Below are positions 821 to 56,800 of a stretch of DNA of 64,000 nucleotides, piece by piece (positions within the stretch are counted from its first letter, which is position 1; each line of letters starts with the position of its first letter). The notes under the pieces are model-generated. The model ran no database searches, was not told the DNA's origin, and saw only the letters and a list, made by a program, of their open reading frames with translations. The position numbers and the translations under genes were made by a program. Source of the stretch: Paraspadella gotoi (Eukaryota; Animalia; Chaetognatha). The stretch is from assembly GCA_051294375.1 (NCBI GenBank), contig CM119269.1, positions 17,346,265-17,410,264 on the forward strand. Reading direction: 5' to 3'.

Positions 821-1014
821 GTTTTATAAAGAAACATAAATTTCAGCTTCAATGTAAGCTTTCATCAGCGAAAAAACAGATTTGTGAAACAAATATTTCT
901 CTCTTCAAACTACAAAATGTGTGAAAATATTTGTTTCACAAATCAATTTATGAGCTGATGAAGGTTTACAATGAAGCCGAAACAAGTCCGAAATTTATGT
1001 TTCTTAATAAAAAC
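821..1014. repeat. Imperfect inverted repeat (Penelope-like pseudo-LTR fold-back) containing hammerhead motifs
   Basis: Arms ~821-898 and ~924-1014 are imperfect reverse complements (gaaacataaatttc/gaaatttatgtttc; gatttgtgaaacaaatattt/aaatatttgtttcacaaatc). Confidence 0.75.
955..988 (+). ncRNA. Minimal type I hammerhead ribozyme core
   Basis: CTGATGA-A-[GGTTT acaatg AAGCC]-GAAA-C-AA-G-TC; very short stem III, as in Penelope-associated minimal hammerheads. Confidence 0.65.
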
Positions 1015-5266: not shown

Positions 5267-6307
5267 TCATTGAAACCAAGAAGTGAAATCGAGTAGCTCT
5301 TCCATGTTTCCGTTTTGCCAGGGCGCCATTTCTTCCATTTCGTTGTCCTCGAGCTGGAGAGAGTTCTCTTCTAAGTCTGAGGCGGTCGAGGAGAGCTGCG
5401 ACGGCGACGTCGACACCGTCGTCGATTCCGTCGACGCCATCGGAGTCTCCATCACCGCGACGGCCCCGTTTTCCGGCGCCATGCTCAGTCCTTCGGCCAG
5501 AGGAGGGAGATAGAAGGAATGCGGCGTCGTGCTGACGGGCGAGCTTGCCTGCGTCGGGATTTCGTCGACGTCCGGATCAGCCGCTTCGGACGAAGCGTCG
5601 ACGCGTTCGGCTTCCTCCGGCGCACCGAAGACGCGATCGTGATCCGCGATGATCTCTTTTAGGCGTTGAATGTATTCGACGGCGCAGCGGAGAGTGTCAA
5701 CCTGGGAGAAAAGTATATTTTATGTATATTTATATTTCATTTCTTGTTGCGTGTGTCTTTAACTCAATAGTGAATACTGAAAAGTGCAATTTAACAATTT
5801 TTCTGACTTTTGGTATCAACGAAGATTTCCATCATCTTCGCCCTCATCTCAAAACCCTTCGTAAAGACCCCGCCCAATCCACCCACCGGGGGCCCCAAGG
5901 GGAGTTCTTTCACCTCGCCACGAACGACAAAAAGTTATTCACTCCTTTTTAGTGTACAATGTGGTTCCGACGGTGCGACGAAACCAGTTTTGGAGAAATT
6001 TACGAATTCTGCGGGTACCTTCTTTATCTCTCTCTCTCTCTCTCTCTTTCTATATCAGGAATTCGGAATTAAAAAAACGGTTTTAATCCGTTTTCTCGTC
6101 TCGCGTTAAATGAAAAGGATTATCTCCGCTCCATCGATCTTGTCAACGCTCGTCACCTTTGCGATCGAACGGGGGAATTTCTTTTTCTGTCTCGATCTTT
6201 TGCGCCAAACGATTAAATTTGAAAAATTTTTATTTTGATTTCGAGTGAATAAAACTGGAATCGAGTTTGAACCGTTCGATAATAAAAATAATCGTGGCAC
6301 GCGCTAC

Positions 6308-36131: not shown

Positions 36132-36361
36132 TCAAATTGATGACCAAGGAAACACGTCGGCTAATTTGTTCCTTTCTTAGATTCTTTCGCTCAAAACATT
36201 CAATTTCTCAAATTGATGACCAAGGAAACACGTCGGCTAATTTGTTCCTTTCTTCGATTCTTTCGCTCAAAACATTCAATTTCTCAAATTGATGACCAAG
36301 GAAACACGTCGGCTAATTTGTTCCTTTCTTCGATTCTTTCGCTCAAAACATTCAATTTCTC
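36132..36361. repeat. 3 x 76-bp near-perfect tandem repeat
   Basis: Unit tcaaattgatgaccaaggaaacacgtcggc...caatttc starts at 36132, 36208 and 36284. Confidence 0.92.
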
Positions 36362-36554
36362 CGATTTTTTTTCCCTTTTTTTTACTCTACACCCTTTTTA
36401 TTTTTCTCTTTCCACTGTTTAACCTTATCTTGACGTCTTCCATCCCTTTCGCTCTCTCTTTGAAAGAGAATAACGAAGAGACAAAAAATGTCCTTCACGC
36501 CACACGTTTTCTTGTTTTCAGAGCGAAAGAGATGGGGCATGCTCTCTTTAAAAA

Positions 36555-37755: not shown

Positions 37756-39091
37756 TCAAATGCACTGGTAGTGATTGCAGAGGCACAATTCATCCGCGCC
37801 GCACCAACGCGCTGTGAAAATTGAACATTGCTGATGAGCGGGGTTTGTGTCCAACATTGCAAATATTAATGACAAGTTTAATAGTAATGCATGTTCAACA
37901 GTATTTTAATAATATTTTAAAGAAGGGCCGAAACGATCATCAAAAGACGCAACCTGCAAACTTTCATACGTTATTACATAATTTTCCGCAAAACATTAAG
38001 CTTACCGCATTGATAAAATATCACGTAGCTCGCCCACATGACTGCCATTTGCGCCAAGCTGTGACCCATGAGGCTCATGGTGAAGATGGCGCCGTGGGAG
38101 TCGTCGACGAGGTAGACCATGATGAAGGACGCCGTTGAGAAGTGGAGCGCGAAGAATTCAGGGATGAAGTACAACCAGCAACAGCATTGACTGGTGATTG
38201 GGTGAATGGAGAAATTATGGTTTTTTATTTAAAAAAAAAATGACGAATCATCAAAACGCGTTAATTATACATAGAATTGAGGAATTCAGAGCTAGACAAG
38301 CCTGATTGTATTGCATGAATTCGTACAACTAACCTAAAAATTATCCATTCTTTCAATAAACAACTAATATTTTTAGTTAGTAATAAGCTATCTTGCCCTT
38401 GACATTAAATGGACAGGCTATGGTGGGTTTAGGCCTCCATCCATCCTACCAGATAATAATATAAAAGGGCGCTGCCAGATCGTAATCAAGACTCTTCCCG
38501 TATAGTTAATTAAATATCAAGAAAGTTGTATTGAGGCGAATCCTAAATTCGCCTCCCTTATATGTACGTTGAAACTAAGCTCGTCTGTTGTCTTGGACAG
38601 CTAAGTACTCACCAACTGTCTGTTCAGGTTTCAATCCCCTCACAGACACGCTGTTTATGTGTGATGGTGTCGCCATAAACACGCCAGTGACATGGGGTAG
38701 TCACTGCAGATCCAAAGCCCTGATCGCCAGCTGTCGGGAGACTAATACCAGTATTTTTCTTTTAGTGACATAGCCAATATCACAAATCATGCAAAGTATT
38801 AGAGTCCCAGGGACATCGTTTGACATCCAACCAAAATGTATCCTTTCTCTCGACTCCGGGGACTAACATGGCGGCGAAGATGCAAAAGAGGAATGAGACG
38901 ACGGAGAGAGCGAAGGCGGACAACGCCATCACGCGGGAAGTTTTCGAGTCGATGCATTTCTTTTCCTTGGGTTTCGGCACAGTTCGAATGCTCGTGCCGC
39001 GCGACAACCTTCGTGATACATGTCGAGGACGGCCCGCCGTCTCCACGTCGTCGTCAAGGTCGTCGTCGTCTTCGCTCTGGTCTCGTCTCAT
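37756..39091 (-). CDS. Small multi-pass membrane protein of unknown family; exons 39091-38784, 38190-38006, 37811-37756 (~182 aa)
   Basis: Phase-consistent GT-AG splicing; acidic/basic N-terminus, hydrophobic segments (ALSAFALSVVSFLFCIFAAML; FALHFSTASFIMVYLV; LAQMAVMWASYVIFY), Cys-rich loop and C-terminus. First donor GTGATA is weak. Confidence 0.6.
38645..38735 (+). ncRNA. Diverged type-P5 twister ribozyme preceded by degenerate tRNA-like B box
   Basis: GTGT-GATGG-tgtcgcca-TAA-ACAC-GC-[CAGTGAC..GTCACTG]-CAGATCCAAAGCCCTG, closed by gaca.gctg/cagctgtc; ggtttcaatccc just upstream. Confidence 0.75.
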
Positions 39092-41047
39092 AATAGTATA
39101 TTTTAAGTACAATGAAGAAATAATTAAATAAATATAAAAAATACGTTTATCTTTCGCTACTCTGCTTCTTTACATGCATGTTTAAACTCCCTAAGCCCAA
39201 ATCCTAACTTAATCTTTATCCCTAACCCTAAACCTTTATCCCTAATTTCTAATCCTAACCCCTAACTTTAAACCCTCGCCCTGAAGTCAGACATTGTAAT
39301 AAATTTACTCCTTATATAAGCATTAAGCATAGCTCATTGAGTAATTGTAATACATCAGCTCATGATCGTCAGGTACTTGGATAAATCCCCAATGTACCAT
39401 TACCTTACCTTACCATAAGTACCTTACCCTGCTGGAAGCGGGAGGACCAGTTCCATGGCTGCAAGAAGCGGTTAAAGAAGTTACAGATAGCAATCTTCAG
39501 CTCACTTAACGCCTTATCCGCAGCCCTCACCAGTAACCATCATTCTTAACCCTAATCACTTACCTCATCCCTAAGCCTAATGAATAACCATTAACCATGT
39601 CCCTACAATTAAAAAAAATTAACCTATTTCCAAATTTAATATAAATTGGGCGTTCAGGGAGTAAAGTAAAAAGTAAAGGAAATTGTGGGGTAAAATGAAT
39701 ATTTAATTTTATTTTTATTTAATTTAATTTTAAATCACTCGTACGAGGGTAGAGAGAATCGACAATACACTGTTTTTTTTTAACCATGCAGTCGAAAAAT
39801 TTTCACAATCCTGTACAGTTTCTAGTATAATTTTAAGTGCTTAAAACGATTAACAAGGTGTCGTCAATCAGATTTTGCGTTAGACCTACGCACAATTGAC
39901 CGGAAGTTGACGTTGACTACAACATAGAATTTTTCTCTTTTCTTTAATTGCAAGATAAGAAAATAGTTTTATAAAAATAATAATCGCTAAATTTTAAGTT
40001 ACTCTCATTATTTAATAAGTTTTACTTTAAAATATTTTAAAAAAAAAGGTTCTTACCCATAGTGGGCGTGTCCAAAACCGGAAATGTCGCTCAAAAACTG
40101 ATAAAATACGCAATATTAATAGTTTTTGATCAACTATAAATATAATGGTTTTTTATTTTCATATTATAGTTGTATCACAAAGAATTATCATATATATCAT
40201 AAAAAACTATCATAGCTCTAAATAGATAAAATAAATATCAGTTACAAAAGTAACTGTTAAAATTCAGAATTAATATTATTTCTTTATTCGTTGTTGAAGA
40301 GACATCATATGCACAGTAGATAATGATTTAGTATTAAGCATATAAACTTTTTTTGACAAGGAAATAAAAAATATTTAGTATTAAGCAATTCGTGGTAGGA
40401 TTTATAAGTATAATTTTCTTACTTTTTTGCAAACATTTTGATTCTTATGAACTAATCATTTTTAAAGGCAGTCCAGAGTAAAAGTAAATTGTTCCAGAAA
40501 AAGTAGGTAGAGAGAGAGAGAGAGTAAGAAGGAGAAGCAAATACAAAAGAACTGCCTTGAAAAATGATTTGTTCATAAGAATCAAAATATTAGCATGAAA
40601 GTAATAAAAATGAACTTGTAAATTCTACTATGAACCTATCAACCTTTAATTAAAGTCTTCATCCGCATTTATGAATTGTCAACAGTTTTTTACTTCACAA
40701 GAAATATTTGGGAGAGAGAGGAGAGAAAGGAAGAGAGAGTGAGAATTAGGTGAGAGTAAGGGAAGAGAGAGAGAGAGAAAGAGAGAGAGAAAAATTTTAA
40801 ACAAAGATTTGAGAAAAGGATAGAGGTCGAGGTGAAGACAGGTTAGGTTTAGGCCAGAGAGAGAGAGAATAGATATTGAAGAAAAAAAACATTTTCACTG
40901 TTTAAAGAAAAATCGTTGCTTGAACTACTTCAAACTCTCTCTAATTCAAAAACGCGACGAAAGAAAGGATTTCACTTAATGGTATAAATGATAGTTTTTT
41001 TATTGCTGGATTAAAGGTTTTTTAAGGAAAAAATGTATCATATTACT

Positions 41048-41091
<44 letters not shown>

Positions 41092-41254
41092 GTTTGACCA
41101 TTTCACTTCTTTTCAAAAAACTCACTCAATCTGTCCTTGCCTTCATCTGTCCTCACCTCTGACCACTATTCTGTCTCACCACTTTGTTAGAAATTTAACT
41201 CTCTCTCTCTCTCTCTCACATTTACTTTTGCAAAAAATTTTTATAGTCTGTCAA

Positions 41255-41298
41255 AAACATTGATGAAGACTTGATCAAGAGTCGAAACATGTCTGTTT
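41255..41298 (+). ncRNA. Minimal hammerhead ribozyme variant (core TTGATGA)
   Basis: aaaca-TTGATGA-A-[GACTT gatcaa GAGTC]-GAAACATGTC-tgttt; same family as the 1338-1384 motif. Confidence 0.6.
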
Positions 41299-41394
41299 CT
41301 ATTAAATAAAATTGTTGTAGTACAAATCTAAATGCTAACTACTGAAGAGACAGTAATTATTGATAAGTGTTAATGACAGAACCGTTCAATATAA

Positions 41395-41468
41395 GCAGTC
41401 CCTGAGCTTCGGATCAGGCTGTTACACCATGCTACAGGCGGGTTAAGCGCCCCGTCCCTCTTAACTGC
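41395..41468 (-). ncRNA. Type-P5 twister ribozyme (third family)
   Basis: Minus strand: GCAGT-taagagg-GACGG-ggcgct-TAA-CCC-GC-[CTGT..ACAG]-c-CTGATCCGAAGCTCAG-gg-ACTGC; P2 is short and imperfect. Confidence 0.7.
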
Positions 41469-41472
41469 CAGT

Positions 41473-41542
41473 CGACCACCGGGCTAGAACCCTGGACCTT
41501 TGGGTTGGGAGGCAAATGACTTGCCTCCGGCACCAATGGCCG
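41473..41542 (-). ncRNA. tRNA-derived head (Pol III promoter) directly upstream of the twister motif
   Basis: Acceptor-like CGGCCAT/GTGGTCG pairing, A-box-like TGGTGCCGGAGG and B-box GGTTCTAGCCC; arms are degenerate, so not a functional tRNA. Confidence 0.65.
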
Positions 41543-42582
41543 CTGATGAACGGTTGGTGGATTTTAGTCCACCATAATGCCAAAAACACAACGAAACGAA
41601 AGGAATACCACAATAAGGAAAAAAAGAAAATTATAAATCTGATTAACTTTTTGAGCATGGATATTGTTTCTCTTCTCCTTCACCTGGAAAAACTTAAAAA
41701 TAGGGTATTCCCTCTAAAGATTTACATAAAACTTTATGAAAAAAGGGTCTAACTTCCGACTATAGTTTTTGAGCAAAAAAATGGTATGCCAGTAAAAAAA
41801 TTACTGATGAAAAAAATTAAATTTGTAAAGGGTATTAAAAATTAAAACTAGGAATTGTTAAAATTAGCAAAGTCTCATTAATTGAATAAAATTGAAATGA
41901 AATTTTGAATATTTACAGTTAAAGTTAAAGTCCTTTGGCTATTAAAAAACAATTTTTTTTAAGATGTAATAATTGATAAATATGATAGGATTTTTTTATG
42001 ATATGGATGATAATCCTTTGTGATAAAGCTGTCATATAACAGTAAAAAACCATTAGCAGTCTGAATAGATCAAAAACTTTTAATAATACATATTTAATTG
42101 ATTTTCGAGCACTATTTCCGGTTTGGGACACGCCCACTATTGATGAAAACCCTTTTTTGAACATTTTTTGTCTCAGTACTACTTATTAAATAATTATACT
42201 AATTGCAGGATAAGTAAATAACAACTGCCTAACTTTTCATTTGTAGTAAAAGAAAAAATTCCATAATGTAGTCCACGCCAACTTCCGGTAAATTGTGCGC
42301 AGGTCAAATGCAAAATCTGATTGACGACACCTTGTTAATCGTTTTAAGCTCTTAAAATTATACTAGAACTGTACAGGATTGTGAAAATTTTCGATTGCAT
42401 GGTTAAAAAAAAAACAGTGTAATCGACAAGCATATTATCAATTTAAATATCTCATTGAGAGCCCGAGACAGATCAGGTTTCATTGACTGCTGTTACACTT
42501 GTGTGGGCTTAGGTCATAAACAAAGCTTATTACGCAGAAATATGTATTAATCATCTTTTATAATGTCAGGGTGAAAATAATT

Positions 42583-43004
42583 TTATCCACTTTCGGGGTA
42601 AACACAATACCAGTTTAGACATTTAAGCAGTTGACAACATCTGTAAAAATCGCAGGACTGATACAATCCGGCGCAGAATTTTCGTTGACGCTGCGTTGTC
42701 CTCGCTTGACTTCGTGTTGCTCGCGGCCCTCTCTTCGAAAATATTTTGACGGACGCCACCTCCGTTTCTTTACCATCTTTCTTCGTTTCGGACTTCATCT
42801 TCGACCAGGAGAAGACTTGGTCTGTCTGAAATCTGTCCTCGTTTTTCTGACGTATAAGAAAAGGGATATGGAATATTTCTGCACGATGATGATCAATGAT
42901 CAATTTTGATCATGAGCATTGAGCAAGGCTCAAGTGGCTCTTTTACTTACCATGGTTGGCAACGAATACAGGCTAACCGCGATAGCTAACATTGCAATCC
43001 ACAT
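42583..43004 (-). CDS. Secreted inhibitor-cystine-knot (knottin) prepropeptide; exons 43004-42951 and 42846-42583 (105 aa)
   Basis: Signal-like MWIAMLAIAVSLYSLPTM, donor GTAAGT and in-frame CAG acceptor, propeptide, RQRK site, then FCAGLYQSCDFYRCCQLLKCLNWYCVYPESG (C-C-CC-C-C). Confidence 0.75.
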
Positions 43005-43605
43005 TCTCGTGGTTACGACGTTTTTAGTTTAAAACAAAAATAGTTTAATTAGCTTGAAAGACATTTAACGTAATTAACTTCTAAAATACAAGCCTCAATG
43101 TCACAATGACCTGTTATGATCACTGGTCACTTATTACTGATTCATACGGTTGGAAAATTACATTTGTAAATATGGAATTTAACAAACAACTTTTTTTTTT
43201 TTAAATCGGAAATATTAAACATTTTTTTGCAATTCAGGATTATTTTTGATGAGAGACCTTGACTGATTTCTCGTGGGTCGACGATGTCATTTTGTTTTTT
43301 CTCGTTGATCGATGAAGAAGAAGACGATCGGTGGCGGAGCTCTGCCGACCCGCGAGTGAAACACGATCCGGCCGTTGACGGCGGCAAAACTGAAATTTTT
43401 TTCAAAAAAACTTTTTTGAACTTGTTACGGTTGTTACGGTTGTTCGTCGTTGTTACGTCGATAATTTAAAGCGGGTTGAGACGTAAATGTGTGTTAAAAT
43501 CAAACTTGAAAGTGTGTAATTAAAAAAAAAATAATAATTGCAACATAGCGGTGAGTTTTATTTTCCTCGATTCAATTTATTAATGATTTGAATTTTACGC
43601 TAAGA

Positions 43606-45005
43606 ATGACTGAAGAAAATCCAAAAACTTCCAACGGGGGAGACGAAGAACCGCCCCCAGGACTTCTGGAACGGTCGGCCATTCAAGATGGAAAGAGAGA
43701 ACGGAAGAAGACGGAAAGACTCTCCGTCACAGCCACGGACGAACGCGAAAAACGTTTTGAAATTCCGGAAGGCAAGGGAACGAAACTGGGCGATTGCCCG
43801 AGAATAGGTAATGCTTAAGTTTTAATGCTGGTTGACCCAAACTAAGGTATGGATTTATTGTTGGGAGGAGGAGCACTTCTGGGTGTGGACTGGTTTAATC
43901 ATTTTCAAAATAATTTCAATCAATATTTTTTTATATTATTATATTTTTATGTACTAGGCATAAACGGAAATTTCACACAAAATAATAGCGTCGGTGCTTT
44001 CCCTCAGATCACAACTTAACCTCCTACAAGGCGGATGAGCTGAAGGGCCTCCACAAGCTCCTTTTCAAAACTCCTGGTCAAATTCATACTCTCAAGAAAA
44101 ACATTCGAAAGTTCAACGGGTTTGCGTTTGACTCTGGCTCCCCAGAACAGGAAAAGAAAAGTCAACAGCTAAACAAAATGGTAGTATCTTTTTCAATCAT
44201 ACTACGTGAATGGCGATTCAAACTTCCATTTAACCTTTGCCTCTACGCAGATGCTGCCCGAACTGAAGAAGATCTGCCTCGTGCTAGATTTAGAGCGAAG
44301 CGGCGCCAAAGAGACGATCGTCGAGCGCATCCTCCAGTTTCTCCTTCAGCCCAGCGACTCTGGACGAAGCGTTCCAAAGAAGAAGTCAAAAAAGAGGAAG
44401 TCCGAGTCGAAGGGCGCCGCCGACGCCGGGAAGATCAAAAAGACGAAAAAGAAGACGAAAAAGAAAAATACTGACGAGGACCTCGTCGACGACGACGACA
44501 TCAGCGCCTCTTCCGGCGCAGAAGACGACGACGACAAAGAAGAAGAAAAAGAAGAAGAGGATCGAGCGAGCGATGAAGAGAGCGAGCCAGAAAAGAAAAA
44601 GAAAAAGAAATCGGCTCCACCCAAGGCCAACGGCGTGAAAGAGAAGAAAGAAAAGGCAAAGAAAAAAGTCACGCCCGCCAAGAAAGTGACCGATGACGAC
44701 ATCTCGCCGGACGAAAGCGATTCGGACGACGAACCCCTGGCAGCCAAGAAAAAAACTATTCCTACCGACAAAGGTTTGCGACTCCCCCTTTTCCCCCCCC
44801 CTGAGTTTTATTTCCGTGTTATTTCCTATCTTCACTTTTCCCTGCAGAAATAAAACAAACTGTGGAGGAGGTTTTGAAAGACGCGGACCTTGACACCGTC
44901 ACCATGAAGTTGGTCTTCAAGGACGTCGCCGCCAAATACCCCGACTTCGATCTCTCCTCCAAGAAGGACTTCATCAAAGCCACCGTTAAGAAGATCATAT
45001 CTTGA
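43606..45005 (+). CDS. DEK: DEK chromatin protein; exons 43606-43807, 44008-44180, 44251-44773, 44848-45005 (~351 aa)
   Basis: GKRERKKTERL, EGKGTKLGDCPRI, LHKLLF..PG..LKKNIRKFNGF, SAP-like ELKKICLVLDLERSGAKETIVERILQFL, and DEK-C (ADLDTVTMK..YPDFDLSSKKDFIKATVKKII). Confidence 0.93.
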
Positions 45006-45248
45006 TTACGCCCACTCTGAATTTCTCCTGCTCGTTAATGAACTCGCATGGGGGACTCTCTTAATTCGCATCATTGTTACCTTATTTTACTTGAATACAT
45101 TCACTATTCATCCCGCCTCATATATAGAATCTTTGCCTTTTCGAAGGCACTATCCTCAAACTTATAATTATTAAGTTGTATTTTTTATGAAACTTGTTTA
45201 TATTTTTTTAAGCTTGCCAAGCTTGATTCTTAAAAAAACAAAACAAAG

Positions 45249-48200
45249 ATGGCACCCTCGCTGACGGCGGCCGAGATAATGGCGCGTCGACGTAACTACG
45301 CCTCTTCCGTCAAAATCAAGGGAACTGTGAAAATGGATAAAGGGAAACAGATCGCCGTCGTCCAGGAAGGTCCGTTGGGGAGGGGACTGGGAGGGGGGGG
45401 GATTTATAGGTAAGGAGGCGAGAGGGAAAACTGTACATCTACGCAGACCGAATGAAGAATTAGGAAAACGTTAAGGAACCACATTTAAAAAAATATGGCT
45501 TTATGGCAACGGGAGGATAGCCTGTGATACCCGGGGCGCGGGGTATCTCACCAACTGGCGTAGGGGCTGCGGACCCTCAGTGACCGCCTCCTGTCACTGG
45601 CATGTTTATACCGGCACCGTCACATTTAAGCCAGAACCGGGATACCCAGGGATTGAACCCGGGACGCACGGATGGAATGAGATGATTTAGCCTGCTCAGC
45701 CATTGAGACGAGGCTGAGGACGGACAGCAGTGAGGCAGCTTTAAGTCTTGCTGCCACAGGATCCCCCTACCAGACTTCTCCACAGGGGCCTCAATCCTGA
45801 GGAGATGTCTGAGAGAAGGTTTTGATCTCATTGCCATAGTGAGAGCGAGCGGGCGAGCGATTGAGCGAGCGAGTCTGGAGCGTTACCAGAGAAGTAGGGC
45901 ATAGGCGTGATATGCATACCCTAAGCGACGTAAGCGTGGGCGCATGGTGCGCAGCGGTTGCGTGTTCGAGAGTAGGGCTCACCACTTATGGCAACGGAGG
46001 ATAGCCTGTGATACCCGGGGCGCGGGTATCTCACCAACTGGCGTAGGGGCTGCGGACCCTCAGTGACCGCCTCCTGTCACTGGCATGTTTATACCGGCAC
46101 CGTCACATTTAAGCCAGAACCGGGATACCCAGGGATTGAACCCGGGACGCACGGATGGAATGAGATGATTTAGCCTGCTCAGCCATTGAGACGAGGCTGA
46201 GGACGGACAGCAGTGAGGCAGCTGCCACAGCTTTTCAATTATTTTTTGTTTTTATTATCAAATCACATAGTGTCTCGTGACGAAGAAAGAGAAAAGCTGA
46301 GAAAGTGGATGGAGGAGAAGAGGAGGAGAGACATGGAGGCGATGCGCAGAAAAAAGTTGGCGCAAGATCCCGCGCAGGGAAAAAAGGCGCCTGCCGACGT
46401 CAGCGGGAAAAAGAGCGCCGGCGAGCCCGTCAAAAACCCTGCGATGAAAAACAAAGAGAAAATCGCCAAATCCCATTCCATAGCAGAAGTGCGCGGTGAG
46501 TGGTCCTTAATGACGCCCTCCAAATTTTCTGTTTTTAGCGATTGCTTATTTTGATCAACTTCCTGCAGCCGACGCAAGCGTGTCAATCGCAAATGAGACG
46601 ACAAATCCGAAAACTCAGGCGACGAAAAAAGTAACATTCACCGGCGGACCAGGTGACTGTTTGTGAAAATTTGTCTTATAAACGAGCCTTCGCTATCCAT
46701 TGTTCAATAATTTTTTTCACAGTCTCGACTCCGACGGCGGAAAAGTCGAAGCTCGTCCATCGCAAGACCCCCAAGCGTCCTTCTTCCACTCCGAACTTTC
46801 GGCGAATCACAGAGAAATCCAAATCTGCCGCCTTGACCCCAATTTCGATAACGGCGCGCACGACACCGGCCACGGATCGTTCAGCGATTCCGGCGCGACT
46901 TTCCTCCAAAAAATTTGAAAAGCTAAGCCCTCACTCCAAGTTTGACCATTGGCTCCGAGTCAAGGGTAAAACTCCGACGCAAGTCAAACACATCGCGTGC
47001 GTCACTCCAAACCGAAAAAGTTAGTTTAATAGTTACTTTTTTTGAAATTCATGTGTATTGGGTAATAAATAATTTGCAATCCAGGAAGTTGAAGACACTT
47101 AGTTTTTGAGACGTCAATAAAAGTAGTTTTGTCCTGATTGCCAGGCGGCCTCGCGGCCATCATTCGTAATAAACTCGAAACATGAAATTTTTTAGATATG
47201 ATATTTTTACTAGCGTCTTCAGTCAATGTCGGGGTGTACGTATTTGGCATTATTGCTTCCAATAGGTTCTTTAAAGCCAACGCATGGTAAAGATTCTATT
47301 ACCGACGACGACGACGAATTTTTCACACGTCTTGTTGAGTTAAGGCAAAAGCGGAACGTCGAAGAAAACAAAAGCGCAATCGAGGTTGACTGTTGACGTT
47401 GAAACCAATTGCTCTCAGAGCAGAGAGAATTAATGTGTATCGTTGACACTTACAGCTTTCTTCGGTTTCTGGCGCAAATTGCGTCAATCGAGCTTCTTAC
47501 TGGTTGTGCCTATCTCATTTGGCGCTCTTAGACACGAAAAGGGCGCCGTCCGAACGGCGTCGCCGCGCCTTTGATTCTCTAAGCTCCGGCGTCGAACGAA
47601 AGGCGGCGCCGAAGGAACTTCTCGTGGAGGAAGCCGCTCAAATTGTTTCGCGAATGTTCGACCTTGAAGATCAGGTGAAAACTGTAGTTTTGGCGTGAAT
47701 TTATTTTGTTCCTTATTGTCTCCTTGACATATGTCTTGTAAATAATGGCCTTCCCATTCTTAGGTACCGGCAGCCGTTGAAGGCAAGAACAGCACTTTTA
47801 CTCTCGACGAGCAGTTGGAAAAGGAAAACATCGCTGGCTCTCCTAAAGGCCAAGCAGAGGTTTGTGTAATTTTTTTACCACCCTTCATTTTTGGGTCCGC
47901 CATTCTTTCGGAGGAATAACTCAATGAAGAATAAAAAAGCTTGGTTTTTTTTTTCGTTTTTAAATTTTAGGTCGATCCTAATGAGAGTCAGATTTTGACG
48001 CCTCCCGCCTCGCCTTCCGGTTCTCCCACCGCGCTCGGCGCGGTCGGCCCAGACGTCGTCTTGGCATCGACTCCGTCACTGCCCAAGCCTTTCCCCCTCG
48101 ACTTTCAGTCGCTGGTACGTTTGCTTTGTATTTCGAGTCAGAGTTAAATATTAAAAAATCATAAAACAATACTTCGGTCGCAGAACGCTTCGACGGATAC

Positions 48201-49884
48201 TCGGGACTCACTCGCGGAACCGCTCCCGGCCTCCGCCTCTTTGGTTACCACTACCCCGCATTTCATTGGTAAGTTTTTCAGCACTGTCAAAATGAAGCTC
48301 GATATCAAACGCTTAGCTATTTATATTGCTTTTTATTGTTTTTTTCTAACTAAAATTTTTTACTTCGTTTGTATACCAGAATGTGCCGCAGGTACGGACT
48401 ACGGAAGCTGAAATTAGTTTCTAGAAAAAAATCTGGTGTTGCTTTGGGTGACAACGTTATTTTGTAATCACGCCCTATATATAGATAACCCTAAAATGTT
48501 AACCTCTGGTCATTGGTAAAAACTATTTTTATCCGTTGTCCAGGAGTTCGTCATTCCATTCGTATTTCTGGCGTCAGCAGCGGTTGCTCTTCGATGCATG
48601 ACATTACCAATGTGAGTATGTTACAAGTATTATTTCTGAAATTTTAAAGATGAGAAACTTCTAGGATGATATTGTCGCAGCGATGATCCTTAATTGTTTG
48701 AATTTTATTTTTAGTGCCATAAGTGNNNNNNNNNNTGAGAAACTTCTAGGATGATATTGTCGCAGCGAAAAGTAATCAATGAGCCTTTTGTCTATTTATA
48801 CGTCCTTCACCAACCGCTAGGCTTCGACTCGAGCGGCGTGCGACTCTGAAGAATCCGAAGACGACTCGCTTGAGGTTGTCGAATTCGGCGCCGACGGAAA
48901 CTTTGCCGATTCCGCCGCAAACTCCGAAGATTACTATTCGCTCCGCTATCGAGTCGAAGGTGAGTGGGGTACCAAGACGGTGTGAGTTAATATAATAATA
49001 AGTTAATATAATAGTATTAAATCCGTAAACGTGCTCCTTGCAGATGCTGAAGTAGATGCCATCGGCGCGACCGCGAGTCAATTGACCCTCGACGGAGTTG
49101 ACGACGTAGTCGACGACGTCGAAGACGAAGAAAAGGAAAACGTCTCTCCCTTGGGATCGGATGATATTTGCTCAGAGATGTCTCACGAACTAATGGCGTC
49201 GCCGATTTTCGTGAGTCATTCTCAATCGGTTTCGTAAATTAATTCAAAAATACCTATTATTGCATCAATAATCAATTGCCATCACATCAATAATTCGGGG
49301 TTTTTTTCGGATTTTTTCATTAACTTTTTTTTTTTTGATAGTAGCGTCTGGCGATGTCACTATAATTTTAAAATTTGTATTCGCTTCGTTTTTTTCCAGA
49401 TCGAAGAGCGACCTTCACCCTGTAAGGCTATCCAGGACCCCTCAATGATTTCCCCGCCCTTTGCCGCCTCAGCCGTTCGCCTCGCTCTCCGCCCCGGCGC
49501 CGTATCCCCAGATAAAGAGCGGGAGGCCGCGGGGCCGCTCGCGGAAGAGTTGAAAGAGAACATCGGAGAAAACGCGGAGATCGAATCGGGCGCGTTTTAT
49601 ACGCCGCCATCCGCTTTTAAGTCCAAATTCGTTGCCACGCCAGTCCGTCGCTCTATCAGACAAACGCCTAGAGCGAAGGTACACTAAAAAACTAGCTTGA
49701 AAATATTAATATTAAAGTTTAAACATCAGGGATGGCTAAATACGTTGTTTCCTAGGCGACGGAGGAGAAGCGGCGACTGATCGGCGCCCTGAGCGAGCTC
49801 TCTCCCGAATCCCGGGCCAAAACAGTTTTGGTTCCCAATCCGCTCATTCTCAACCAAGACTTCGAACAAAACGAAGACGATTGA
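45249..49884 (+). CDS. CKAP2/CKAP2L-like microtubule-associated protein, multi-exon (45249-45369, 46271-46495, 46569-46652, 46723-~47020 ... last exon 49756-49884)
   Basis: Motifs REKLRKWMEEK, HWLRVKGKTP, ASYWLCLSHL..AAPKELL, FVATPVRRSIR and VPNPL recall the CKAP2 family; some internal exon boundaries are approximate and there is a small N gap near 48726. Confidence 0.6.
45555..45634 (-). ncRNA. Type-P5 twister ribozyme (3' LTR)
   Basis: Reverse complement of the 53641-53720 motif. Confidence 0.85.
46038..46117 (-). ncRNA. Type-P5 twister ribozyme (5' LTR)
   Basis: Reverse complement of the 53641-53720 motif. Confidence 0.85.
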
Positions 49885-50844
49885 TTTTCGAGTTCAACTC
49901 TATTTTTTTTTATATATTATAATACGATATATTATTTCGTCAAGTAGATTTAGTATTGAGTCTTCTGATATTTGATATTTTCAAGGGTGGGACTGCATTA
50001 TATTTTTAACACTATACGCATTACGCATGTTGCTTGTCCAATTAAAAGTTGTTTGTAAAAATTTGATTGTTTTATTAAAGTATTTTACGACCGTAAAACA
50101 CTGTCGAGATAACAAATTTAGCTACGTAGTACCGATGTAAGTGAAGGCCACTTTCTACTTCATTTTTTAGAAATTCCTAATGCCAATAAGATTAGCTATT
50201 TCTTGAAACGATTTTAACCGCCAATTCAGTTATATCGTCAATTTGCTCTCAAAGATCTTTTGTTTTTGCCTCGATGTATTTCCGCTCAAGTTTTCCTTCC
50301 TCTCGTTCGATGGCAATGGCAGAAACCACGATTATTTCTAAATCCTAATGGGTTCGGTTCCACACTGCATGATTTTTTTTATTCCACTGGTTACCTTTTA
50401 AAAATGAGTAAACCTAAAGCCTGTTTCTTACGAGTTTTGTATCGACTAAAATCATTTTCTCCTATTTTTCAGGAATCACTGAAAGATAATTATTGCCAAA
50501 ACTGCCAGAGGATGAACCCCTTTGCACTGAAGGATGAATTTTGCTAAAACTTATCGAAAATCTAGTCAAACAGCTTGCCATTGATCTCATTTTTGCTTCG
50601 CAACTCAATTAATTCTCGATTGACCATGGAACGAGCGTTAACCGCTTTCTGCTCAAAATATAAACCTTAAATTACGCTCAGTAACCTCGCGCGTCCACAT
50701 CAAGAAACCCACTTTTACATCCTAACACCTTTATTATTATTTATATATCTCATTGAAACTTCTTTGTCAACCAAATTCGTGGCGCCATCTTAGAAACCAT
50801 GCACTCTCCAATGAATTTCCCCGTCGCGTTCCCGAAGTGAAATC

Positions 50845-53800
50845 ATGATCTCTTTATACGTTATTTGCGTGGCCATCTTGTTCGCCTCGCTCGCCCATGG
50901 ATTTCCATCGTGGATGGAGAGCCTCCGCGGCGAGGACGCTTCGGCCCTTTCAAGGAGAAGACTCCTGCAGCTCGGAAACGATTCACGGACGGAAGTCGAC
51001 GAGACCAAGCTTCGTAACGACAGCCGAAGCGATCAGGTCTCAACCCCCTCGCCGCGCTCGCCCCATCAAGAGATCTCATTTTTCGCTCTCTCGATTCTCA
51101 ACAACACCTACACGTTGCCGTCCGCCGACTCCGACAGCCCCAACATCCACTCCAACATGAATTTCTTCTTCGAGCTGCCTTCCGGTGAGAACCTTAAGGG
51201 ATCTAGGTTTATAACCTCGCACGCTAAACCAAAGAGTAGTGACATGCTTAAATGTTTTTCAAAATTTCACTCGCATCCCCCACCCTTGCTGATTCTTTAA
51301 TAGACTTCACCAAGTCGGCGATACTTCAACTGGAGACGCGAATTTCGATGGCCTCCTGCGCCGAAGACCCGGAATCGATCGTCCGCAGCCTCGTCACCTC
51401 CGCCAACGGCGTCCGCACCGCCATAACGAGCACCTGCCTTCGCGGACGTCGCCAGGCCAGGGGTCGCGGTAAGTTTTTCTACCAAGGGGCTTTTTACTGA
51501 AATTTAAAAATTTATACCTTTTTTTACTAATTTCTTGAAATTTTTTTTAATCTTTAGTCCACGGATCATTCATGGACGACGGAAGAAAATCTATTGATGA
51601 TGATCAGGACGACGACGAGTCAGACGACAAGTGGGCCAAAGCGGCGTCCGCCGTCGTCTGCCCCATTAACGCGCGGGCCGATCGTTTGTGGATTGACGCC
51701 GTTGGTACCCCCGGCGCAGTGTTTAACATCCACATCGAGGCGAGGTTCAACAACATCAAAGTCGGTCATCCCAAACAGGTTGGAAAATTAAAGAATAAAA
51801 GGTGACTTGTTTATAATTATATAATAACAACACTGATAGGTCGGAAAATAATAATTTTGATTGGAAATTAAATTGCTTGCTGTTTTACATCACACCCACG
51901 ATTTTTTTCAGGTGACCATCTCCGGAGTAGGCCGCGACCACGGCGTTGACGGTGACGACTCTTTCACGGAGATTTTCACCTTCGAATTGGACCACGTGAC
52001 CGCCGGCTCGCAGATCATGCTCGCCTTTTCCTCCTCCATGGAGGACAACGTTCCCGCCGAGTTCACGCTCATGAAGGACTGTTACGACGGCAGCAGTGGA
52101 GCGAAGAACGAAGAGCGGAGGAAGATCAGGGGTGAGATAAACCAGGACAGAGTCCCTCGTTTTCATATTTTTTTTTTTTAAAGTTTAAAATCCGTTTCAC
52201 GCTTCTACCCTTCAAGGATTGCGGTACGCCGCTCGAATGAAGATGACGGCGAGACGTGTTGGGACCATGTTTCTGTCCCCCGCCACGCATCCCCGGATCA
52301 AAGCCGGCAAATGGTACATCGGCGTCACCCTCCTCAACCCCAAAGGATTTTGGCGCAGGTAGTTTTTTTCTTGACCCTGGTAAAGAAATAGAAAAAGGAA
52401 GCGCCAAGGAAATCCTTCTCCCTCAAAGAAATAGAAATAGAAATAGAAAAAGAAATAGAAAAAGGAAGCGCCAAGGAAATCCTTTCTCCCTTAAAGAAAT
52501 AGAAAAAGAAATAGAAAAAGGAAGCGCCAAGGAAATCCTTTCTCCCTAAAGGAAAAAGAAATAGAAAAAGGAAGCGCCAAGGAAAATCCTTTCTCCCTTA
52601 AAGAAATAGAAATAGAAAAGAATAGAAAAAGGAGCGCCAAGGAAATCCTTTCTCCCTTAAAGAAATAGAAAAATTAATAGAAAAAGGAAGCGCTAAGGAA
52701 ATCCTTTCTCCCTTAAAGAAAAAGAAATAGAAAAATAAATAGAAAAAGGAAGCGCCAAGGAAATCCTTTCTCCCTTAAAGAAAAAGAAATGGAAAAAGAA
52801 ATAGAAAAAGGAAGCGCCAAGGAAATCCTTTCTCCCTTAAAGAAATAGAAATATAAAAAGAAATAGAAAAAGGAAGCGCCAAGGAAATCCTTTCTCCCTT
52901 AAAGAAAAAGAAATATAAAAAGAAATAGAAAAAGGAAGCGCCAAGGAAATCCTTTCTCCCTCAAAGAATAAACTCGTCCGACGCGAACGCGACTCTCGCG
53001 CTCAACCGCCAACGACGACAGGGTGTCATCCTGACGAAGTCGTTGACGATCCACATCCGCGACGATTCCGAGGCCTTTCGGATCTGGCCCATTTTCGCCA
53101 TGGCCTCCATCTCCTGCGTGGGAGTCCTCGCTCCACTCCTTTATTATCGACTCCTCACCCAAGTGGAGATCAAGTTGGGCGCCAAACTCGGCCGCGCGTG
53201 GGTGAGTTCTGCGTTGCTCTTTTTCTTATTTCTTCAGGTTTTTAAAATTCACTTTGTCGGTCCGTCGTTCCCTCCTCCAAATCGCTTAGATCGTGACAGA
53301 ACATAGAATTATAATAAATTGCGCAAAGACAACGATGTCTGTTTGCCCGTCCGATCCCCCTTTGAACGCGGATTACTCATGAGTTTAGAGGGCGATTTAC
53401 TTAAAATTTTTTGTGTGATTAAGCTGGAAATAAAGTTTTGATGGAAACGTTTGAGTCGAAATGAGATTAAATAGAAAAAACTGCGAAACTTTTTTTTCCT
53501 TTTTATATTAAGCAGTTGTGGCAGCAAGACTTAAAGCTGCCTCACTGCTGTCCGTCCTCAGCCTCGTCTCAATGGCTGAGCAGGCTAAATCATCTCATTC
53601 CATCCGTGCGTCCCGGGTTCAATCCCTGGGTATCCCGGTTCTGGCTTAAATGTGACGGTGCCGGTATAAACATGCCAGTGACAGGAGGCGGTCACTGAGG
53701 GTCCGCAGCCCCTACGCCAGTTGGTGAGATACCCCACGCCCCGGGTATCACAGGCTATCCTCCTGTTGCCATAAGTGGTGAGCCCTACTCTTGAACACGC

Positions 53801-56800
53801 AACCGCTGCGCACCATGCGCCACGCTTACGTCGCTTAGGGTATGCATATCACGCCTATGCCCTACGTCTCTGGTAACGCTCCAGACTCGCTCGCCCGCTC
53901 GCTCTCACTATGGCAATGAGATCAAAACCTTCTCTCAGACATCTCCTCAGGATTGAGCCCCTGTGGAGAAGTCTGGTGGGGGATCCTGTGGCAGCAAGAC
54001 TTAAAGCTGCCTCACTGCTGTCCGTCCTCAGCCTCGTCTCAATGGCTGAGCAGGCTAAATCATCTCATTCCATCCGTGCGTCCCGGGTTCAATCCCTGGG
54101 TATCCCAGTTCTGGCTTAAATGTGACGGTGCCGGTATAAACATGCCAGTGACAGGAGGCGGTCACTGAGGGTCCGCAGCCCCTACGCCAGTTGGTGAGAT
54201 GCCCCGGGTATCACAGGCTATCCTCCCGTTGCCATACAGTATCATTAAATTATTAATTAAATAATTAATACAATGACTAAAACGACGACGAAGATGGCGT
54301 CGCCAGTCGATTAAAAAAATGTTATTGTTATTAACTAATTAATTAATTATTAAATTATTTAAATATTTAATTAATGCTAATGATCGTGGGCAAATCCGGT
54401 ATTGTTTGCTCAAATTTGTTCGTTTCTATATTCATATTTTAATTTTTATTTTATTAGATCAGCGTGATTTGTAATTGGCTGCTAAAGGGGCACAAAACTT
54501 TCAGCTACACCACAGTTTTGTTCGGTGTCACCCTAGCCATCGGCGCTTTCCAGATGGTGCAGGAGAATTGGTAATATATGCTTGTAGTGGAGCTGAATGT
54601 GAATACGATGAGTCCGGAACGGCATAAATTTACCATCGCCGACTGGGGAAGTTTAGGGTTAAGGGTGGTTTAGGGTTAGGCCGTAGGGGTGATTAGTAGA
54701 GCGTAGTGAAAGTTAAATACGAAAATTCTAAATGTCAATTATGAACAACATACCATCAGTGGACATTAATTTGTAAAAAAAATTAATTTTATGTTCTTCA
54801 ATTTTCGCAGTAGGCTATATTTATATGTTTTGTTTAAAAAAGTAAAAAGAGAGAGAGAGAGAAATGACCTTGGTACTTGGTAGGAATAGGCACTTAGGCA
54901 GTAGTCATTAATAAAAACACCATCAGTGATTTTTGACCACTTTTCTCCATGATGAAAATATATCTTTATATTAAATTATTGGTGCTTGCGATGATGACGT
55001 TAAAAGAATCAATTATCATATAATAATTATCATAATACGTATTTTAAACCCGAAATTCGTAGGTACAAGATGCTCGTTGCTGGCGACAGGGATCTTTGTT
55101 ATTATAACGAACGATGTTATGTAACAAACCTCATTTACGACTATCCTTTTAATCTCATAAGGTAGGAAGAGAGGCGACGTTGTCGTTTTCATTCTCCCAT
55201 AATTGTTTCATAATTTTTTTCCAGTTCAAACATTTGCTACGTTATTCACGGGGTAATCGTCGGTCTGTCTTTGTCCGTTCGCGAAGCTTATTGTTTTTCC
55301 GAAGGTAGACGAACTTTCGAAATTTTATGATAACAGAAGTTCTTTAAATGTTCACTATATCTTATTTAGATAATGTAAAATTTCTGATCAGGCCACGTTC
55401 TATACTATGATTTTTCTTTGGGCTATGCCCTCGCTTGGGCCTTGATCTTCGAGGGCGTTTTTTCTTCCATATATCACCTCTGCCCCACCCGGCTCATTTT
55501 TCAATTTGACACGAACTTCATGTATCTCATTGGCGCCCTTACAATTACCTGCGTTTTTCATGGAAACTCGATTACACAACAAACTCTCCTACTGCTTCAG
55601 CGGTCAGTAATAACACACGGTTCCCTAGACACCCCGAAAAAGAAAATAGAAATAACCCATTTTTGAAACACAAAAAAATGAAAAATATAATGTTTTTACT
55701 ACATCGTAGTGAAGTCGAAAAATACTGATCCAAGCAAGTTTTTTTTTAATTGAATTTTAAAGTTTTGTTATAATTTTTCATTCAAAATGATGAGAAATTA
55801 ATCAACGACTTTGTCATTCTTTGTCAAATTTGACTTTCTTTATATCAATCATTATCTACTGAAAGAGAGCTTTAATTTGAACTCACTCTCATAAGCCTAC
55901 GATTATTTGTTCTCAAGTTATTATTGAAAATAACTCAATTTATTACAAAAATAGTAACCATTTTGTAATTACTACATGAAAGACTTATTCAATTATTATT
56001 TAATAAAAAACTATAGGAATGTAACATACAATTGCTTAGCTTCAAAATTAACCTCATTTTAAATTTTTCTTCAACAAATAAGTACTATGAAATGCTATGT
56101 ATAAAATTTTATAAATTATTCAAAAATATATATATAAAATTTAACAATTTTATACATAGCATTTCATAGTACTTATTTGTTGAAGAAAAATAATAATAAC
56201 TTGAGAACGAATAATCGTAGGCTTGTGAGAGTGAGTTCAAATTAAAGCTCTCTTTCAGTAGATAATGATTGATATAAAGAAAGTCAAATTTGACAAAGAA
56301 TGACAAAGTCGTGGATTAATTTCTCATCATTTTGAATAAAAAATTATAACAAAACTTTAAAATTCAATTAAAAAAAAACTTGCTTGGATCAGAATTTTTC
56401 GACTTCACTACGATGTAGTAAAAACATATTTTTCATTTTCTGTGTTTCAAAAATGGGTTATTTCTATTTTCTTTTTCGGGGTGTCTAGGGAACCGTGAAC
56501 AATCGTAATTAATCTTTTTTCTTTACATTTATTTATTATTTATATGCTTATGTATAATTAAAATTACAGATACTCCCATTTAACTGAAGATGTCAAAAAG
56601 GCTCTTAATTTACTCGCTAGTCAAAAAAGCTTGCATCATACCAAAATTTTCCTGTTTTTCGCCGCCCCCATTCTTACCTTCAATTACTTGGGATCTATTA
56701 AGGAAGTGTCGGGATTCGGACCCGTTCTACAGGTTCGTTTTTGGTTTTCAGTTTCGAAAAACCGTTCTTTTCGGATCCGAGGCGACGTTAAATGCCACAA

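Follow-up and report, generated by a model that had tools for sequence, protein, structure and literature searches.

Must two ribozymes come together before either of them can cut? A 64-kb stretch of Paraspadella gotoi DNA (64,000 nucleotides, hereafter the window) raises this question, since its LTR elements carry twister-like motifs in which the P1 segment is only a few nucleotides long. An earlier note on this DNA had proposed that P1 is a loop-less palindrome in every family of these motifs, that the two LTRs of one transcript swap strands to build it, and that the twister is likely an obligate dimer, so that host pre-mRNA with one LTR would be spared.

A structural descriptor search found six type-P5 twister-like motifs in the window, compared with none in 30 composition-matched simulated windows. 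The descriptor combined the GA-NGG strand, UAA, P2, P4 with an 8-nt L4, and pseudoknots of 3 bp and 2 bp. Four of the six motifs belong to family 1, and families 2 and 3 are represented by one motif each (Table 1). Because the four family-1 LTR ribozymes are identical over all 79 nt, we counted them once, which leaves three families; families 1 and 2 have their P3 stem in common and are therefore not independent of each other. The U-A-A cleavage strand and the GA-NGG strand flank P1 in 6/6 motifs, each with a complete type-P5 descriptor. The earlier note had thus placed P1 correctly between these strands, and its P1 sequences and coordinates were right for all three families.

The pairing of the motifs is well kept. 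P2 pairs at 4/4 positions except in family 3, which has three pairs with a bulge, and P4 pairs at 4/4 positions except in family 2 (3/4). The 3-bp pseudoknot T1 reads CGG/CCG or UGG/CCA depending on the family, a compensatory change, and compensatory changes between families also occur in P2, P4 and P5. The 2-bp pseudoknot is GC/GC in all motifs, a constancy that covers only three families. Each motif is closed by a P5 of 4-7 bp, with the termini in P5 and P1 closed by the chain. The bases of the catalytic core and both pseudoknots are all retained across the three divergent families. An automatic three-family alignment put family 3 out of register, and covariation was taken from the descriptor output.

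Rfam gave no match at gathering score in the whole window, and we therefore do not file the motifs under the Rfam twister family. At E values up to 5, positions 38000-55000 gave no twister match and four unrelated weak matches. A covariance model built from 21 phage P5-type motifs placed family 3 at E 0.26 and family 1 at E 5 (partial) and did not list family 2; an unrelated site scored better (E 0.21), and these matches are not significant. Since neither Rfam nor the phage model provides a significant match, it is the descriptor and covariation that carry the twister call. On these grounds we describe the motifs as type-P5 twister-like, with cleavage as a prediction. A seventh descriptor match (type P1, 62300-62221, 3/4 pairs per stem) was rejected as chance, the controls giving 0.13 such matches per window.

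Table 1. Features of the window discussed in the text (positions are those of the 64,000-nucleotide stretch)
Feature	Position	Strand	Remarks
Element E1, non-coding LTR element (TRIM)	53517-54236	+	720 nt; TG...TA ends; TSD CAGT
E1 5' LTR	53517-53773	+	257 nt
A-box-like and B-box-like motifs, tRNA-derived head	53573-53625 (A 53573-53584; B 53616-53625)	+	pattern match
Family-1 twister-like motif, copy 1	53641-53720	+	P2 4/4, P4 4/4, T1 3/3
Family-1 P1 TGCCGGTA	53659-53666, then TAA 53667-53669	+	fully self-complementary with G-U pairs
Predicted cleavage site, family-1 copy 1	between 53667 and 53668	+	from the descriptor
PBS-like sequence	53776-53788	+	starts TGG, 2 nt past the 5' LTR
Short G-rich tract, weak PPT candidate	53975-53983	+	just before the 3' LTR
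E1 3' LTR, with family-1 twister copy 2	53987-54236	+	cut-to-cut unit 470 nt
Family-1 twister, copy 2	54111-54190 (P1 54129-54136)	+	in the E1 3' LTR
Element E2, second copy	45502-46229	-	TSD AAGC; cut-to-cut unit 483 nt
Family-1 twisters of E2	46117-46038 and 45634-45555	-	from the descriptor
Family 2, probable solo LTR	38527-38793	+	267 nt; TG...CA; TSD AAGT
Family-2 twister-like motif	38651-38731	+	P4 A-C mismatch; P1 no full palindrome
Family-2 P1 TGTCGCCA	38668-38675	+	not fully self-complementary
Family 3, probable solo LTR	41368-41612	-	245 nt; TGT...ACA; 5-bp TSD CTTAT
Family-3 twister-like motif	41395-41468	-	P2 3' strand one base short
Family-3 P1 GGCGCT	41451-41446	-	fully self-complementary
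9-bp inverted repeat	41555-41381	-	encloses the family-3 tRNA-like head and twister
Spliced DEK-like gene	43690-45002	+	one relative by protein search
bHLH exon	5267-5719	-	weak Pfam HLH match; presumably achaete-scute-like, from its look
Long inverted repeats	39766-40214 / 42421-41981; 55616-56497; 1292-1469; 822-1012		possibly MITEs or foldback elements
Tandem arrays	52377-52971 and 36132-36366		units of ~62 nt and ~76 nt

The family-1 elements span 720-728 nt and have LTRs of ~250 nt. Within them the LTRs differ by 0-2 substitutions and short indels, and E1 contains no ORF of at least 120 aa; their sequence marks the family-1 copies as young and intact. A- and B-box-like motifs directly precede the twister in each family-1 LTR. 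Families 2 and 3 have a B box only, which in family 2 lies at the family-1 offset. These matches were made with the usual A- and B-box patterns of Pol III. ARAGORN found no tRNA gene in the head of the E1 LTR; the head of family 3 forms a tRNA-like cloverleaf that folds with z = -4.4. The purine tract before the 3' LTR is short and interrupted. No run of four T occurs on the sense strand of the element, where 1.6 are expected, so this absence is not significant alone. The ends of the family-1 LTRs can pair as RNA if G-U pairs are included. E2 lies on the strand opposite the DEK-like gene, at 500 nt beyond the last match to the coding sequence of that gene.

Families 2 and 3 are probably decayed solo LTRs built on the family-1 plan. 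Signs of decay are the P4 mismatch in family 2 and the P2 strand that is one base short in family 3. The TSD of family 2 is weak evidence by itself because a 4-bp duplication is present at 2 of the 48 end pairs considered; for the ends of family 3, a 5-bp duplication is found in 1 of 102 end pairs. Immediately upstream of the 9-bp inverted repeat of family 3 there is another hairpin, and one pair of the long inverted repeats (39766-40214 / 42421-41981) encloses the family-3 solo LTR. Searches for relatives gave three matches to the family-1/2 pattern in metagenome contigs, none of them a twister, and four matches to the short-P1 pattern in prokaryote genomes, none of which passed the pairing filter. 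The element had no match among plasmids.

What kind of element carries these motifs? Its anatomy resembles that of the Helenus / TRIMp3 elements, as described in the accessible parts of Kojima 2024 (PMC10886601). Like these, the window elements are non-coding, shorter than 1000 bp and bounded by two LTRs, occur also as solo LTRs, and have tRNA-like Pol III boxes in the LTR; the PBS-like sequence and the weak PPT candidate may correspond to the PBS and PPT of Helenus. The 4-bp TSDs of the window (CAGT and AAGC) are as in animal Helenus, and the start of the window PBS matches that of Helenus-2_SyJa/SyUm at 11/13 positions by eye. There are also differences. In the window the twister follows the B box, whereas most of the wasp LTRs examined in that source have a T-run there (by eye); family 3 has a 5-bp TSD, and family 1 ends in TA.

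Two of the wasp LTRs, Helenus-2_SyJa-LTR and Helenus-2_SyUm-LTR, have no T-run by eye. Directly behind the B box both appear to have a type III hammerhead instead; its stem III is long, and it seems to include a long loop-loop pseudoknot. From their sequences, these hammerheads appear to occupy the same slot as the window twister. In the main text of PMC10886601 the word "ribozyme" is confined to the reference list, and nine twister L4 words gave four single matches in the accessible supplement, none twister-like by eye. The supplementary sequences also contain a ~45-nt conserved block in wasp Helenus interiors (Helenus-2_MeDo, -1_ToGe, -1/2_TheEle, -2_GasPul, -3_EuAn), possibly a structured RNA signal. 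By its anatomy, the host element of the window is a Helenus-type TRIM with one twister per LTR, and this result is firmer than the dimer.

The element also resembles the plant LTR retrozymes, which give rise to circular unit RNAs (Cervera 2016, PMC4918200). As far as the available text of that work describes them, the two have in common one ribozyme per LTR, a non-coding interior, a PBS or PBS-like sequence, a 4-bp TSD, solo LTRs and a cut-to-cut unit RNA, which is here predicted from sequence alone. The plant elements use a type III hammerhead and have a unit of ~700 nt, whereas the window elements have a twister, a unit of 470-483 nt, an animal host and a tRNA-derived Pol III head. Because the ribozyme is twister-like and not a hammerhead, we do not file the window element as a member of the LTR retrozymes. 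Metazoan retrozymes are described as being without LTRs, PBS and PPT in the accessible part of a 2020 review (PMC7761336). By analogy with the plant elements, the host element likely works as an animal LTR retrozyme.

We next consider the P1 segment itself. In the window it is 6-8 nt long, and the isolated segments have hairpin energies of +3.0 to +5.6 kcal/mol; P1 is therefore too short for a stable hairpin, as had been claimed. The TGCCGGTA segment is also present in the three further LTR copies of family 1. As RNA (UGCCGGUA) it pairs at every in-register position when G-U pairs are used, with a predicted self-duplex energy of -10.9 kcal/mol, and the family-3 segment (GGCGCU) does the same at -8.3 kcal/mol. 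The family-2 segment (UGUCGCCA) has a central U-C mismatch and an unstable self-duplex (-1.5 kcal/mol), and the window contains no second family-2 copy that would back the palindromic form, one change away, on which the earlier note relied. The palindrome said to exist in every family is thus found in families 1 and 3 and not in family 2.

How often would such symmetry arise by chance? The probability of at least two full palindromes among three segments is 0.003 if no pair is assumed, ~0.02 with one closing pair and 0.11-0.13 with two closing pairs. The test hinges on the closing pairs assumed because the two ends of a P1 hairpin always pair with each other. Since the pattern was spotted post hoc, we regard it as suggestive rather than established.

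For an outside control, we used phage P5-type twisters from six viral-contig scans, in one of which 120 of ~200 matches were listed. Filtering 336 viral loci for full P2, P4 and pseudoknot pairing gave 34 distinct motifs among the matches listed. In 33/34 of these listed motifs P1 measures 15-25 nt, and nearly all are long hairpins. The central four bases are self-complementary in 0/24 even-length phage P1 segments among the matches listed, compared with 2/3 window segments (Fisher p ~0.009, by hand), and the central two bases pair in 5/24 and 3/3, respectively, all C-G in the window; this control is imperfect because the phage motifs are predicted and long hairpins need open loops. Set against phage P5-type twisters, the window P1 stands out as both short and symmetric. 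The fifth base of L4 is C in family 1 and A in 34/34 phage motifs listed, an A that most search patterns had fixed.

The phage scans contained two further arrangements. In some cases several P5-arranged motifs lie on one contig (e.g. L021/L263-L264, L017/L287 and L319/L320). Phage contig L019 (100-260; also L026, L204 and L224) carries two tandem type-P1 twister-like motifs. The first uses a non-palindromic 6-nt segment as its 3' P1 strand, and the second is thereby left almost P1-less. Such a tandem pair is a natural test of whether P1 is dispensable.

Could two copies build P1 together? In a strand-swapped dimer, the left half of one copy lies on the right half of the other, and this arrangement is topologically nested. 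For isolated motifs at 1 M, the predicted swap energies are -15.1 kcal/mol for family 1, -11.7 kcal/mol for family 3 and -4.7 kcal/mol for family 2; these values were reached by 1.7%, 5.3% and 17% of P1 shuffles (n=300), respectively. Most of the phage motifs (n=22) have swap energies between -2 and -6.5 kcal/mol, three range from -11.6 to -12.8 kcal/mol, and in one of the 22 in-register swap pairing is impossible. For the two-LTR RNA, the swapped form is predicted to lie 7.5-8 kcal/mol below two monomers. In its unconstrained ensemble the swapped helices have probabilities of 0.18-0.27, and monomer P2 and P5 are at ~0. Swap energies of this kind describe secondary structure without both pseudoknots and under-penalise closure of a loop of ~400 nt; at an effective concentration of 1e-5 M the swap would lose 7 kcal/mol. 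Two copies are thus predicted by folding to be able to pair through P1 in families 1 and 3. The proposal that LTRs swap strands to build P1 is therefore favourable for these two families and not for family 2.

Is a single copy able to cut? Reaching the active-like fold costs the family-1 monomer 4.7 kcal/mol, compared with 1.9-8.2 kcal/mol across 22 phage motifs; with 100-nt flanks the cost is 4.9-8.5 kcal/mol in family 1 and 2.3-9.3 kcal/mol in phage. For families 2 and 3 it is 9-12 kcal/mol. In the best fold of the family-1 monomer the cleavage site lies inside a 5-bp local hairpin, which a P1 duplex would displace. Published work, cited here from the accessible parts of each paper, bears on the same point. 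P1-less twisters cleave at an almost wild-type rate according to a review (PMC5408937), and among 1948 natural twisters cleavage was unrelated to the length, stability or defects of P1 (PMC11662667). The latter study used a type-P1 template to check its new candidates, and ~94% of the natural twisters assayed were active. Schistosoma variants from a search that allowed up to four P1 mismatches were reported as active (PMC8501958). The same source calls P1-less cleavage inefficient, which leaves room for enhancement by P1, and engineered changes or modules on a loop-closed P1 can switch the output of a twister (PMC5052635). With P1 reported as dispensable in published twisters and the family-1 fold cost within the phage range, the word "obligate" finds no support; dimerisation is probably not required for cleavage.

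Comparison with other small ribozymes points to both likeness and difference. The minimal hammerheads of Penelope-like elements and amphibians (PMC6765202 and PMC7229834, in their available text) resemble the window motifs in that a hairpin has shrunk to a short self-complementary segment by the cleavage site and in that the element supplies two copies per transcript. However, a short stem III is described there as crippling the hammerhead monomer; stem III is needed for monomer cleavage, whereas the twister P1 is reported to be dispensable. For obligate-dimer ribozymes of the hammerhead type, a short self-complementary stem by the cleavage site would be expected in all members; it is found in 2/3 window families. 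The type-P5 twisters of phage, a class taken from the accessible text of PMC5408937, have the strand order, core bases and two pseudoknots of the window motifs; their P1 is mostly 15-25 nt, whereas the window motifs have a P1 of 6-8 nt, a P3 hairpin and a P5 of 4-7 bp. The T-variant twisters of Perere-3 in Schistosoma mansoni (PMC8501958, as far as available) likewise occur naturally in a retroelement and have a P1 that is weak or altered, but they are of type P1, and a non-LTR element carries a single one at its 5' end. Neither "dimer" nor "palindrome" occurs as a word in that paper.

The reading that we prefer, with a probability of about 0.55, is that each twister copy cuts alone and that the self-complementary P1 provides an optional swapped dimer, which would stabilise the ribozyme without gating it. 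Pol III would start in the head of the 5' LTR and read through the element, a read-through that we infer from the lack of four consecutive T on the sense strand. If both LTRs were cut, the 470-483-nt unit RNA would be set free and circularised by a host ligase; its reverse transcription and integration would be left to an autonomous LTR element, as for plant LTR retrozymes. Because transcription finishes the first twister 470 nt ahead of the second, a monomer able to cut would do so before its partner exists; misfolded molecules could then be rescued by a strand swap with the second LTR. This optional dimer is supported by the descriptor matches (six against 0/30 controls), the compensatory changes and the published dispensability of P1. 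It is also supported by the lack of a palindrome in family 2, by a family-1 fold cost in the phage range, by a Helenus slot that appears to take a long-stemmed hammerhead with no sign of a dimer need, and by an anatomy that matches Helenus and plant retrozymes. Several results weaken it. If P1 were merely dispensable, perfect dyad symmetry in two divergent families with P1 of unequal length would not be expected. The swapped helices reach 0.18-0.27 while monomer P2 and P5 are near 0, a hairpin buries the site, Rfam gives no match, the phage model is weak, and P1 modules can switch twisters. Furthermore, inhibition of the predicted circle (6.6-9.1 kcal/mol) is not greater than that of the nascent LTR (8.3-9.3 kcal/mol), and a fast monomer would therefore open again the circle to which it had given rise.

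A dimer-gated twister, in families 1 and 3 at least, is a rival that we consider possible though rather unlikely. Monomers would be largely trapped in inactive folds, the LTR copies would swap through the palindrome, and the swap would build one P1 of 6-8 bp, both ends of which carry an active site. Cleavage would be limited to two-LTR RNA, and the ligated circle with its one ribozyme would be stable. The swap energies of families 1 and 3 (-15.1 and -11.7 kcal/mol, against -2 to -6.5 kcal/mol for most phage motifs) argue for such a gate, together with the nested topology, the 7.5-8 kcal/mol advantage over two monomers, and the self-complementary central four bases in 2/3 window segments compared with 0/24 phage segments listed. 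Hammerheads of Penelope elements and axolotl retrozymes, in the published text available, offer a precedent. The dispensability of P1 in the accessible published tests argues against a gate, as does family 2, which is neither palindromic nor favourable to the swap. The fold model lacks pseudoknots and is lenient on the ~400-nt loop, where 1e-5 M would cost 7 kcal/mol, and the sample is three families with shared ancestry, for which p is 0.11-0.13 once two closing pairs are assumed.

The palindrome might instead be kept for the cleaved RNA and not for catalysis: by pairing one RNA with another, it could signal dimerisation or packaging into the particle of a helper element. It stops one base short of the cut, so that the unit RNA carries it at its 3' terminus, a position that follows from the sequence, and its self-duplex energies (-10.9 and -8.3 kcal/mol) agree with such a role. 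Palindromic dimerisation signals occur in retroviral and LTR-retrotransposon RNAs. We nevertheless judge this use improbable, family 2 having no palindrome. We give still less credence to the view that the motifs are poor or inactive ribozymes, RNA structure or decayed relics with chance symmetry. The lack of Rfam or phage-model support would fit it, as would the C at the fifth L4 base of family 1, where 34/34 phage motifs listed have A, and the 9-12 kcal/mol that families 2 and 3 need for an active-like fold. However, core bases and both pseudoknots are kept with compensatory changes in three families, the family-1 copies appear young and intact, and ~94% of assayed natural twisters were active in the available data of PMC11662667.

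In the literature searched, mostly outside subscription papers, we found no natural twister with a palindromic P1 or a dimeric form and no ribozyme-bearing Helenus; word searches of the accessible text of PMC10085705, PMC8782182 and PMC13725137 returned neither. No description of an animal LTR retrozyme was found in the literature searched, and in the accessible literature examined LTR-bearing retrozymes are reported from plants only. Even without the dimer, the element joins the Pol III-headed TRIMs (Helenus) to the ribozyme-bearing LTR retrozymes, which have so far been separate. For type-P5 twisters it would mean a concrete predicted role in an animal genome. Its P1 of 6-8 nt, in a natural twister, also tests whether P1 is dispensable when a short chain closes it. 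That the window holds the first dimer-gated twister from nature, carried by an animal LTR retrozyme, together with a Helenus-type swappable ribozyme slot that replaces the Pol III terminator, is a combination that we think doubtful. If dimer gating were true, it would account for the survival of a circle whose ligation junction restores a fast ribozyme, solo-LTR transcripts and the one-ribozyme circle would escape cleavage, and the element would contain a compact RNA switch that depends on two copies.
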